In this document: positions 9,001 to 12,000 of the stretch, piece by piece
How positions within the stretch are numbered: the stretch's first letter is position 1
Layout of the letters: the number at the start of each line of letters is the position of its first letter
Virus record (IMG/VR): IMGVR_UViG_2681813268_000016
Location: 1 to 12,547 of that record
Strand: one strand, 5' to 3'
DNA: 12,547 nucleotides
Source of the DNA: a virus
Taxonomy: Duplodnaviria > Heunggongvirae > Uroviricota > Caudoviricetes
Program-made: the position numbers

Positions 9001-12000
9001 GAACTCAAAAGAAATGGCGTCGTTGATAAAACTGGTCACACCTGGTTTCTGGCTGGCGAAGGTGAATCCCGGGTAACCGAAGAGCGGCCAGTAAAATCTG
9101 AAGCACAGGATATGCTGACCGGGGAGGTCGAACAAAAAGTTACCGCCGACATGATGATTGAGTTTATCGGTCAGGATGGGGCTAAAACGTGTGAGGAACT
9201 GGCGGGTAAGTTCGGTGTCAGTACTCGCAAGGTTGCTTCCACGCTGGCGGTGGTAACCGCAACGGGGCGGCTGGCACGCGTTAATCAGAACGGTAAATTT
9301 CGTTACTGCATGCCGGGCGATAATTTACCAGCAGAGCCGAAAGCCGCGCTGGTAACGGAAAGTGATGGTAAGGCCTTTCCTCAGCCAGCAGGTGCTGCGT
9401 TACCAGTCCGGGAAGCCGCAACACAGGAAGAAATTAAAACAGAAACTGTGGCGGACATTGTGCAGCCGTTGCCATCGTTTACCGAAACGCAAGCAGATGA
9501 GCTGATTTTTCAGTCCCTTCGCAGGGCAAACCTGGCGCTGCGCAGGGCGAAAAGTGATGTTCAGAAGTGGGAGCGAGTCTGCGCCGCGCTGCGGGAGCTG
9601 AACAAGCACCGGGATATTGTTCGACAGATTACTGATTCTTCCCGCCGTGTTGTATCGGAAAAGTGATTGCCGGAGGCGCTTATGGCAAAAGTATTTACAC
9701 AAGAAGAGCGGGAAAAAATTAAAGGGCTGATCGTGGAATTCGTACGCCTTAACGGACGAGGCACGATTCGGCAGTTATCGGATGAAATTGGTGTCAGTCA
9801 TGCGTCTGTCGGTCGTTTATGCATGGAGCTGGCCGCCAGTGGTGATGTTTACAATTCCGGTTACGGAGTATTCCCGTCTGAGCAGGCGCGCAAGGACTGG
9901 CAAAACGCCCGCAAAAAACTCTCAAGGGCAAAGCTGAAGAAACCATCTGTGGTTGATCCGGACCTTATCTGGCTATTACCAGACGGCGAAATACGCCGCT
10001 ACGACAGGCGCCTAAACATAATCTGTCGCGAGTGCCGGAAGAGTGAAGCTATGCAGCGTGTACTGGCTTTCTATCAGGGTAATTTTCAGGAGACGGTACT
10101 GTGAGTGAAATTAGCTATCAGGCTTCAATTACCGCTGGCATTCGCATCAAAGGAGAGGAGCATGGAAATAAAACCAGAAGATGAGTTAAGCAATATTGTT
10201 TTATTTCCGGTAAAAGAGGATAACCCTCGTAATCAGGTTAATTTTCTTTATGAGCCATCGGAAAGACCATATTGCCATCACGCTTCTGTCCGGGTTGACG
10301 AAAAAGAGCGTCAGGTCCGCTGTAAAATCTGCGGTGCGGTTGTGGAGCCGTTTGACTGGATGCTCTCTGTGGCAAAAAGAGAAACCAGACTGGCAGATGA
10401 TGTAAGGCTATTGCGCCAGGAGGAACAGGAAAGGCGGAAAAATATAGAAAAGTTAATTCAGATTGAGCGTAACGCGAAAGCGCGGATACGCAGGGCGACA
10501 AAATCCAGAACTGAATAATTAAATTTAGCACTGTAAATAAAATCAAATCCTTAACCGGAGGGATTTCTGCACCCTCAGAACATCAGGAGGCCGTCCGAAA
10601 GGGCGGTAGTGAAATGCGAAAATTCAAAATAATTATTGAAACGGGAATAGCCGGTGGAGATTTCGAGGATGAATTCGAAGTGGATGATGATGCAACACCA
10701 GATGAAATACAGGATGAAGCTAAAGATATTTTCTTTAACTACTGCAATTACTCATACCACGAAATAAAAGACGAAGAGGAAGAACAAAATGGCTGATTTT
10801 GGTTCAACTAAATATAACGCCAGTTTTGAAGAATGGCATGAACTGTTAATGGATTATGCAGAGTTACGCGGTGGAAGTGCCGCTGATGCTGAAGCATGGC
10901 GTGATGATTATGAAGCAGGGAAAACACCGGTCGAAGCATATTGTGATGAGTGGGGCGATGAATGAGCGAGATTAATTATCAGGAAGGGCATGAAAAGGCA
11001 GGGCAGGCAAAACCAGTGGCATGGCGATATCGCTACGTGAAAAAAGGCGTTACGGACTCTCAGGGGGAGCCGTGGGTTGGTGACTGGAAATATGTACCGA
11101 CAAAAGAGGATTGCAACGACAGGCCGAGCTATGAGATTCAGGTCTTATTCACTGTCCCGCCTGTGCCACTGACACCAGAAGGATTGATTAAAGCAGTGCG
11201 TTTCTATGAACAGGTAAAGCGTGAGAATCCGCCAGTCGAAACCGGAGCATGGAAAGACGCTGTTGACTGGGTGCTCAAAGAGGCTTACCAGGCTGTAAAC
11301 ATTGGTACCAAAGGAGATTGATATGACCACTTTTACCGACAAAGAACTGATTAAAGAAATCAAAGAGCGCATAGGCAGCTTGGACGTTCGAGACAATATT
11401 GAGCGCCGTGCTTATGAAATTGCTCTGGCATCGCTGGAAGCAGAGGCAGTTATGTTCTGTATATCAGGACAAAATGTAGATTCAGAAGAACATGTATCAA
11501 CCAGCAAAGCGGTTGTTGATGCCTGGGTTGAAGAATGGAATCAGGTTGACGGAAGTCCTGGCGAACCACTGTACAAAACTATGCCACTCTACTATCACGC
11601 TGCCTTGCCAGCGCCGGTAGTGCCGGAAGAAGCAACTCCGGAAAATGTAGAAATGCTCTCTGGCTATGTTTCCACGTACAAATTAACCGATAGCGAGCGC
11701 GATATTGCTGCCGAAATATGGAACGCCTGCCGCGCCGCTATGCTTCATGGGAAAGGAGAGTGATATGGCAACTTTAACAAAAAAAGAACGGGCATGGTTG
11801 AACGAATTACAGGACGTTCTTGATCGCTGCCCATCACCGAAAAAAATTGGTTTTTACACCATTGGCGATAAAAGCATTTACCTGTATGACCTGCGCCGCA
11901 TGGATGAAATCATGGAGGCTCTTGATAATCGTTCGTCGATGGATTGGTGTGTTGCTGTTCATGATATGAATGCAGGGTTTGATGAAAAGATTTTGTTCCC

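Follow-up and report, generated by a model that had tools for sequence, protein, structure and literature searches.

The window analysed here is a stretch of 12,547 nucleotides (nt), positions 1 to 12,547 of the IMG/VR virus record IMGVR_UViG_2681813268_000016 (Caudoviricetes), and represents a Rac/Qin/Stx-like lambdoid prophage of E. coli. We analysed a translation start in this prophage at which a Shine-Dalgarno (SD) sequence is separated from the start codon of a small acidic open reading frame (ORF) by a stable hairpin. The SD and the hairpin form the 3' half of a leader of about 65 nt. The parts of the site, all on the + strand, are as follows.

10545-10609, + strand: conserved and apparently portable leader of about 65 nt, AAATCCTTAACCGGAGGGATTTCTGCACCCTCAGAACATC-AGGAGG-CCGTCC-GAAA-GGGCGG-TAG, recognized from alignment, copies and shuffled flanks
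10585-10590, + strand: Shine-Dalgarno sequence AGGAGG, read in the sequence, 23 nt 5' of the ATG
10591-10606, + strand: hairpin CCGUCC-GAAA-GGGCGG, 6 base pairs (bp) including one G-U, GNRA tetraloop, optional seventh pair G10590-U10607
10591-10596, 10597-10600 and 10601-10606, + strand: hairpin parts CCGTCC, GAAA and GGGCGG
10607-10613, + strand: A-rich, unpaired, gene-specific spacer TAGTGAA between stem and start codon
10614-10616, + strand: start codon ATG
10614-10796, + strand: acidic ORF of 60 amino acids (aa), DUF7167 / phrog_1997, function unknown, assigned from profile matches and purifying selection

The positions and sequences given for the SD, the stem arms, the loop and the ATG by an earlier reading of the DNA alone (the sequence-only reading) were exact. 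AGGAGG lies 23 nt from the ATG at 10614 in linear distance, and the distance is 7 nt when the 16-nt hairpin is excluded; that reading had put it at about 5-7 nt. Its 6-bp stem (one G-U) with a GAAA tetraloop was recovered by RNAfold on 10575-10625, together with the seventh pair G10590-U10607 (minimum free energy, MFE, -14.2 kcal/mol, z = -2.5), and 3 of 200 shuffled sequences folded equally well. In a 142-nt context all stem bases were paired with a probability of about 1.0 and the AUG was mostly unpaired. The spacer at 10608-10613 was unpaired with a probability of 0.56-0.96, and U10607 was mostly paired (0.26).

The predicted energy of the hairpin is -9.7 kcal/mol for the 16-mer, -11.7 kcal/mol for the 18-mer with the seventh pair and -12.8 kcal/mol in the AGGAGG-to-ATG context. 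Among all 16-mers of the window it is the second most stable + strand hairpin with 6 bp and a 4-nt loop (-9.7 kcal/mol), and 0.23 equally stable hairpins are expected per strand in a shuffled window. AGGAGG occurs three times on the + strand of the window. Since both the hairpin and AGGAGG are rare in the window, their abutment 7 nt before a start codon is not a matter of chance.

The ORF matched Pfam DUF7167 (E = 1.2e-14), and 20 of its 60 residues are acidic. The ratio of non-synonymous to synonymous substitution rates (dN/dS) was about 0.02 against the allele of ArgO145 (9 synonymous differences, 1 non-synonymous) and about 0.1 against diverged alleles. This substitution pattern indicates a real gene under purifying selection, which therefore must be translated from this site. 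The N-terminus MRKFK is common to every DUF7167 homologue, with or without the hairpin, and no in-frame start was found upstream of ATG 10614 in the window. For these two reasons the start codon is secure, and the conserved N-terminus identifies ATG 10614 as the authentic start. Some deposited DUF7167 proteins of 84-93 aa (P0002-P0005) begin earlier, with the leader translated as part of the N-terminus (...GGISAPSEHQEAARKGGSEM...); probably their starts were annotated wrongly, or the genes are variants in which the upstream stop or the ATG has been lost.

Extent and distribution of the leader

A pattern scan of viral contigs returned a shared leader, AATCCTTAACCGGAGGGATTYCTGCACCCTCARAWCATC-AGGAGG-CCGCCC-GAAA-GGGCGG-TAR, which corresponds to 10545-10609 of the window. 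The fetched loci held 196 instances, and the mean column identity was 90% among the 38 distinct leader versions. Of 5426 complete E. coli genomes, 2071 carried the leader (2502 places, up to five per genome), and among the matches listed ten of ten copies carried no annotation. No paper was found by a full-text literature search for the hairpin sequence, DUF7167 or DUF4014.

The genes on both sides of the leader were then compared. Four families lie downstream: DUF7167; DUF4014, a 72-aa membrane protein; a single BLAST cluster of 92-277 aa with M[TA]ELTKE- and MQ[ED]IKEN-type N-termini and unknown function (the TELTKE/MQEIKEN cluster); and a Q-antiterminator-like family. At least 9 families lie upstream, in mixed combinations with these four, and the flanks differ between instances on both sides. 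The sequence-only reading had presented the SD-hairpin as a feature of the acidic ORF. It is real before this ORF, but it is not specific to it and belongs to a cassette common to unrelated genes. In diverged homologues bearing the cassette, 14% of positions differed in the 64-nt leader. The gene next to it differed by 38-49% at third codon positions, which makes the leader 3-4 times better conserved than silent positions, and the flank upstream of the leader could not be aligned.

ArgO145 has two cassette copies. In the first, an inserted 70-aa ORF separates the left half of the leader from the TCAGGAGG-hairpin, which identifies the right half as a separable unit. TCAGGAGG is kept when everything 5' of it has been replaced (ArgO145-type context). 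Ordinary genes of these phages typically have their SD within TCAGGAGG too, at a gap of 4-9 nt. The inserted ORF (3170-3382 of locus L002, ArgO145) uses the left-half GGAGG as its own SD. The second copy (4459-4489 of the same locus; 5' arm CCGCCT) precedes a DUF4014 gene annotated 'released from the phage upon host infection'.

These distributions leave little doubt that we are dealing with a portable cassette placed where gene modules meet. It moves between lambdoid (Rac/Qin/Stx-like) prophages of E. coli, joins accessory genes to one another and marks the points at which they are exchanged.

A few records stand apart. In Rac-SA53 (L225, 1294-2059) an IS1 is inserted about 30 nt 3' of a cassette copy (5' arm CCGTCT, then AACAGATAATG), and the following gene is displaced. 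An E. coli-type cassette with DUF7167 occurs in a Collinsella-binned contig, and DUF7167 with a 97% identical cassette in PP818812.1, a record named Actinobacillus phage vB_Apl-pPE4. These two assignments may be binning or host-assignment problems. A 38%-identical DUF7167 homologue in a Bacilli-binned contig has no cassette. The cassette was absent from the Rac prophage of K-12, so K-12 expression data sets are unusable for it.

Comparison with T4 and a split ribosome-binding site

Hairpins between the SD and the start codon are known from T4 genes 38 and 25, where they shorten 22 nt to 5 and 27 nt to 11, respectively; they bring the SD and the AUG together, and mutations destabilizing them lower initiation (PMC3014915, PMC7297116). 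The gene 25 structure is reported to be conserved across close T-even phages and has been confirmed by reporter assays and dimethyl sulphate (DMS) probing (PMC3014915). We read and folded the gene 38 region directly (UAAGGAG-AGGGGC-UUCG-GCCCUU-CUAAAU-AUG; MFE -16.7, z = -4.2). It has a 22-nt gap, a predicted 8-bp stem with a 6-bp GC-rich core, a UUCG loop and 5-6 nt left to the AUG, and its SD overlaps the stem base.

On this direct reading and folding, the gene 38-type anatomy ascribed to the window by the sequence-only reading turned out to be a near match. The T4 sites and the window share a strong SD 22-27 nt from the AUG, a stable hairpin in the gap whose base abuts or overlaps the SD, and an A/U-rich remainder of 5-11 nt up to the AUG. 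With gene 38 in particular, the gap is 22 nt versus 23 nt in the window, and both hairpins combine a 6-bp GC-rich core with an extra-stable tetraloop. A split translation initiation region has an SD more than about 15 nt from the authentic start and a stable gap hairpin abutting the SD that leaves about 5-11 nt. In the window AGGAGG lies 23 nt before the ATG, and the abutting hairpin of 16-18 nt leaves 6-7 nt. Some differences were also found. The loop is UUCG in T4 gene 38 but GNRA in the window, and the phage is T-even in one case and temperate lambdoid in the other. The element of the window sits on a portable cassette serving at least four gene families and not on one gene. The T-even structure of gene 25 was confirmed by assays, whereas the window element is known from sequence and predicted fold, with no covariation.

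By analogy with T4 gene 38, we give an even chance to the reading that the SD-hairpin acts as a split (non-contiguous) ribosome-binding site (RBS). The cassette would supply a translation-initiation signal to whichever gene sits downstream. The 30S subunit would pair with the exposed AGGAGG, and the adjacent GC-rich tetraloop hairpin of 6-7 bp would stay folded, looped out of the mRNA path. The linear SD-AUG distance of 23 nt would thereby become an effective 6-9 nt, with the AUG placed in the P site as in T4 gene 38. We infer that ribosome binding leaves the hairpin intact and that efficient initiation depends on it.

The energies of the possible states were estimated by constrained folding. 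Keeping the hairpin while exposing the SD, the spacer and the AUG cost 4.6-10 kcal/mol, melting the hairpin and using its 3' arm as the SD cost 14-15 kcal/mol, and full linearization cost 19-21.5 kcal/mol. The predicted duplex with the 3' end of 16S rRNA was -10.3 kcal/mol for AGGAGG and -8.3 kcal/mol for GGGCGGU. In this model the state with AGGAGG bound and the hairpin kept is favoured over melting the hairpin for GGGCGGU.

The distances were consistent with the split site. The gap from stem to start is 7 nt in DUF7167 (6 in one diverged copy), 6 nt in DUF4014 and 9 nt in the TELTKE/MQEIKEN cluster; a gap of 11 nt is confined to the Q-like family, where a separate GGAG comes with the gene. 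The cassette gaps (6, 7 and 9 nt) match those at ordinary AGGAGG sites of these loci, which range from 4 to 9 nt and are most often 6-7 nt. Another good SD is absent in three of the four downstream families, namely DUF7167, DUF4014 and the TELTKE/MQEIKEN cluster. In the window the spacer has no SD. The 3'-arm GGGCGGU is a 6-of-7 anti-SD match at a distance of 7 nt, but it is predicted to be closed within the stem.

Our results confirmed the observation made by the sequence-only reading and partly supported its interpretation; structure-dependent control of translation by the hairpin, which it also proposed, is a conjecture. Of the readings considered, the likeliest is that the element works like the hairpin-bridged RBS already known from gene 38, carried here on a mobile linker cassette. 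No second convincing lambdoid case was found when the 1.4 Mb of fetched loci were scanned for other SD-hairpin-start arrangements, which gave chance matches in GC-rich contigs only. If the mechanism holds, the hairpin-bridged RBS would be a standard portable part of temperate phages in 38% of sequenced E. coli genomes and not a T4 curiosity. Programs that find genes or calculate RBS strength from the linear distance between SD and AUG would then mis-score these starts, and the SD with its insulating hairpin would offer synthetic biology a compact natural part. If the hairpin is dispensable, the cassette would still be a clear example of a conserved linker mediating modular exchange.

Conservation of the stem and competing explanations

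The stem was kept in nearly all of about 200 instances, and its 3' arm was almost invariant. The common 5'-arm variants (CCGCCC, CTGCCC, CCGCCT, CTGTCC and CCGTCT) retain pairing through G-U. The common stem variants CCGTCC, CTGCCC, CCGCCT, CTGTCC and CCGTCU are all C-to-U changes opposite G, one-sided changes of this kind occur at three positions, and the pairing is kept in + strand RNA only. The common CCGCCC form has a predicted energy of -12.4 kcal/mol (16-mer) to -15.5 kcal/mol (in context). The SD varied only to AGGGGG and AGGAGA. The loops seen across instances were GAAA, GAGA, GUCA, GGCA, UAAA and AAAA, and the spacer was highly variable (TAGTTAA, TAATGA, TAAACCA, TAACATA, TAAGAA, TAATGAAAA). 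Four to five rare variants disrupt the stem and are uncompensated. These variants occur in 1-4 contigs each, and all fold to a hairpin on the same base (-6.7 to -11.2 kcal/mol).

Covariation was searched in about 90 DUF7167 loci, in diverged homologues (protein search and contig look-up), in the pattern scan, in directed scans and in one metagenome scan, the last of which returned an unrelated match only. The covariation that the sequence-only reading had suggested looking for did not appear, with no compensatory double change in about 200 instances or five directed scans.

Several observations weigh against the split-site reading. RNAalifold reported compensatory change in 0 of 16 predicted pairs. 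Directed scans of viral contigs for five 3'-arm G-to-A transitions, with the partner base left free, gave no compensatory partner; three of the five transitions were found, in four events (GGACGG, GGGCAG twice and AGGCGG), none with a U partner. An uncompensated C-to-G variant, CGGCCC, was present in three phage records. In total there were about 6-7 pair-preserving versus about 5 pair-breaking events, which is not far from neutral expectation or parity. Three loci (L049, L065 and L082) have no AGGAGG, yet the gene is kept. In DUF7167 homologues without the cassette, the place of the 3' arm is taken by an ordinary SD (GGAG, GGAGG or GGGGAG) that lies about 7 nt before the ATG. The SD bases 10587-10590 have a predicted unpaired probability of only 0.03-0.19, being partly masked by the upstream CCUC/UCCU. 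Conservation of the cassette could also come from repeated recombination between copies and not from RNA function. Constraint on the stem is favoured by the frequency spectrum only, not by the event count.

Some of these variants have further features. The AGGCGG variant precedes a Q-like gene having its own SD. In L228 and L230 (CTGCCC-GAAA-GGACGG, spacer TAGCAAT) a C.A mismatch breaks the normal stem, and a shifted 6-bp stem GCUGCC/GGUAGC is possible (-8.4 kcal/mol), ending 3 nt before the ATG. In the degenerate leader of L049, L065 and L082, GGGGATCCCTCAGGCCCGAAAGGGCGGTAGTGAAATG, small deletions have apparently removed AGGAGG and two stem pairs, and the DUF7167 ORF is intact.

Recombination without any role of the hairpin at the RNA level was considered as an explanation for these patterns. 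The cassette would then be a homology patch for accessory-gene exchange, kept uniform by recombination or gene conversion and tolerated by translation. The combinatorial flanks (9 upstream by 4 downstream families), the sharp end of conservation at both cassette edges and the mosaic joints inside or next to the cassette are what such a linker would produce. It also agrees with the missing covariation and the several uncompensated stem mutations, and with the GGAG that the Q-like family brings after the cassette. However, AGGAGG is the sole SD in three of the four downstream families, whose proteins are under purifying selection, and a linker does not require an SD abutting a hairpin of -12 kcal/mol at a ribosome-compatible distance from every start. 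Moreover, the ArgO145-type context keeps exactly TCAGGAGG and the hairpin while the rest of the leader is replaced, and the common variants are G-U-compatible on the + strand only. We therefore regard a pure linker as unlikely.

The SD found at the 3'-arm position in cassette-less homologues raises another explanation, in which the degenerate GGGCGGU, 7 nt before the AUG, would serve as the SD. By sequestering it the hairpin would be a negative element, and AGGAGG would be a standby site holding the 30S subunit until the stem breathes. GGAG, GGAGG or GGGGAG stand exactly there in those homologues, no part of the cassette varies less than the 3' arm, the three loci without AGGAGG retain GGGCGGTAGTGAAATG, and the predicted anti-SD duplex of the arm reaches -8.3 kcal/mol. 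But freeing the arm would cost 14-15 kcal/mol, more than the -8.3 kcal/mol gained, and the split state is ahead by about 8-9 kcal/mol in the window. G-to-A variants inside this putative SD exist as well (GGACGG, GGGCAG and AGGCGG), and AGGAGG is conserved as strictly as the arm. These points make a 3'-arm SD quite unlikely.

The loop and the number of copies bear on a third explanation. The hairpin could be the site of a phage or host RNA-binding protein that co-regulates the cassette-led genes, or a barrier protecting the downstream mRNA after processing in the AU-rich upstream sequence. Most loops are G-N-N-A (GAAA, GAGA, GUCA and GGCA) on an invariant GC stem; the identical element stands before several genes, up to 5 per genome, as a regulon signal would; and an AU-rich tract lies just 5' of the leader. 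Against this, the element had no Rfam match and lacks lambda-type nut features, the stem is too short for RNase III, there is no candidate for the binding protein, and UAAA and AAAA loops exist. A recognition or stability hairpin appears improbable.

The leader contains further SD-like and anti-SD-like tracts 5' of the SD, and a hairpin was predicted in its left half.

10545-10566, + strand: predicted left-half hairpin AAAUCCUU-AACCGG-AGGGAUUU, from the predicted fold and the alignment
10548-10554, + strand: UCCUUAA tract, invariant in 38 distinct leaders, resembling the 16S 3' end
10557-10562, + strand: GGAGGG, SD-like or decoy, within the left-half hairpin
10572-10576, + strand: CCCUC tract, anti-SD-like, with predicted pairing to the SD (GAGG 10587-10590) or to GGAGGG 10557-10562

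In the alignment of 38 versions the T4-A10 stretch of the leader is invariant. RNAalifold gave an alternative fold in which UCCU pairs with AGGA of the SD and GGAGGG with CCCUC, and the leader alignment held no covariation to choose between it and the left-half hairpin. CCCUC varies to CCAUC, CCUUC and CUCUC, all uncompensated. The whole leader might therefore work as a switch, in which UCCUUAA (10548-10554), CCCUC (10572-10576) and the decoy GGAGGG (10557-10562) mask or unmask AGGAGG by alternative pairing and the hairpin only fixes the geometry. The RNAalifold pairs, the low unpaired probability of the SD bases 10587-10590 (just 0.03-0.19) and the invariance of TCCTTAA in the 38 distinct leaders are consistent with such masking. 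However, the pairs involved are either invariant or vary without compensation (CCAUC, CCUUC, GGAUGG and GGAGUG), ArgO145-type copies work without the left half, their halves being separated by the 70-aa ORF, and the helices are 4-5 bp only, with no known trigger. The switch also appears improbable.

Known systems, rejected identities and genomic context

Promoter-early stem-loops (PeSL) of T4-type phages are short conserved motifs between non-essential genes in plastic regions, and recombination between their copies shuffles modules (PMC2839356). The cassette resembles them in being conserved, intergenic and repeated where modules meet, with flanks that are shuffled from copy to copy. The difference lies in the signal, because a PeSL consists of a sigma-70 promoter and a terminator stem-loop, whereas that of the cassette is translational (SD and hairpin). 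Scans found no promoter-like or terminator-like site on the + strand in 10500-10620. A combined reading, possible but doubtful in our view, is that the cassette is both a recombination joint for accessory-gene swaps and a self-contained split RBS, with the anti-SD-like tracts (UCCUUAA and CCCUC) and the GNRA hairpin placing every gene inserted behind it under common post-transcriptional control. Over a third of E. coli genomes would then carry, in translational form, a counterpart of the promoter-terminator PeSL cassettes.

The SAS and ESAS elements of cluster K mycobacteriophages are also related in arrangement. The repeat lies directly 5' of the start codons of many unrelated genes, ESAS has an inverted repeat, and the elements are suspected, so far without proof, of acting in translation initiation (PMC3203893). 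Like them, the cassette is a conserved repeat with an inverted repeat just 5' of the starts of unrelated genes. The sequence and the host are different, and the inverted repeat of ESAS has 17 bp, a variable spacer and a position 5' of SAS and not between SD and start. SAS/ESAS have many copies per genome, versus 1-2 per prophage for the cassette.

A lambda-type nut boxB also has a short GC stem with a GNRA-type loop in an early phage transcript. The boxB loops of lambda and P22 are GNRA-like pentaloops. The cassette hairpin differs in lying directly between the SD and the start codon, and it can occur twice per gene block and far from early promoters. A nut site was rejected on its position, on the 4-nt loop (GAAA in the window, 4 nt in all variants) and on the lack of boxA, no CGCTCTTA-like sequence being found in 10519-10590. 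The GC-rich stem-loop of an intrinsic terminator leads into a run of U. This identity was rejected as well, since the sequence after the stem is UAGUGAAAUG (+ strand) or CCUCCUGAUG (- strand) and the terminator scan was empty here. A promoter at the site was rejected because the promoter scan was empty. Rfam 15 gave nothing relevant for 10350-10800 at E up to 10; the sole gathering-level match of the window, DicF, lies elsewhere.

One reading frame (10541-10609) crosses the whole leader up to its stop at TAG 10607-10609, which is TAA in most copies. It is open for 10-32 codons, and a few copies have starts in it that give short ORFs (9-16 codons). A small leader ORF in this frame was judged incidental, as most copies have no canonical start in it and there is no SD upstream. 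In the diverged contigs L088 and L089, an ATG gives an upstream ORF of 24-26 codons stopping 3-4 nt before the main ATG.

P2-like terminase small-subunit genes matched the 22-mer of the site and were rejected as cassettes, because the string is coding sequence there (QEAAR.GG). In L143 (about 11453-11495), L158, L164, L200, L202 and L209 the string AGGAGGCCGCCC....GGGCGG specifies Q-E-A-A-R-x-G-G. The match to the cassette is unusually long in L143, where it covers TCAGGAGGCCGCCCGAAAGGGCGG and 7 of the 8 nt that follow. The likeness between terminase and cassette is taken as a coincidence of codon choice.

In the window, the + strand gene order is a cro/cII-like pair, replication genes, DUF1627, DUF977, a Zn-ribbon gene and then small accessory genes. 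Two further features belong to this context.

10105-10518, + strand: gene upstream of the leader, Zn-ribbon protein, phrog_1621, its stop 95 nt before the ATG
4534-4585, - strand: full-length DicF antisense small RNA, Rfam RF00039 (72.5 bits, E = 9.5e-15)

The 95-nt gap after the Zn-ribbon gene is the sole long intergenic gap, as the other junctions in the chain overlap or abut. The presence of DicF places the window in a Qin/Rac-like dicB operon context.

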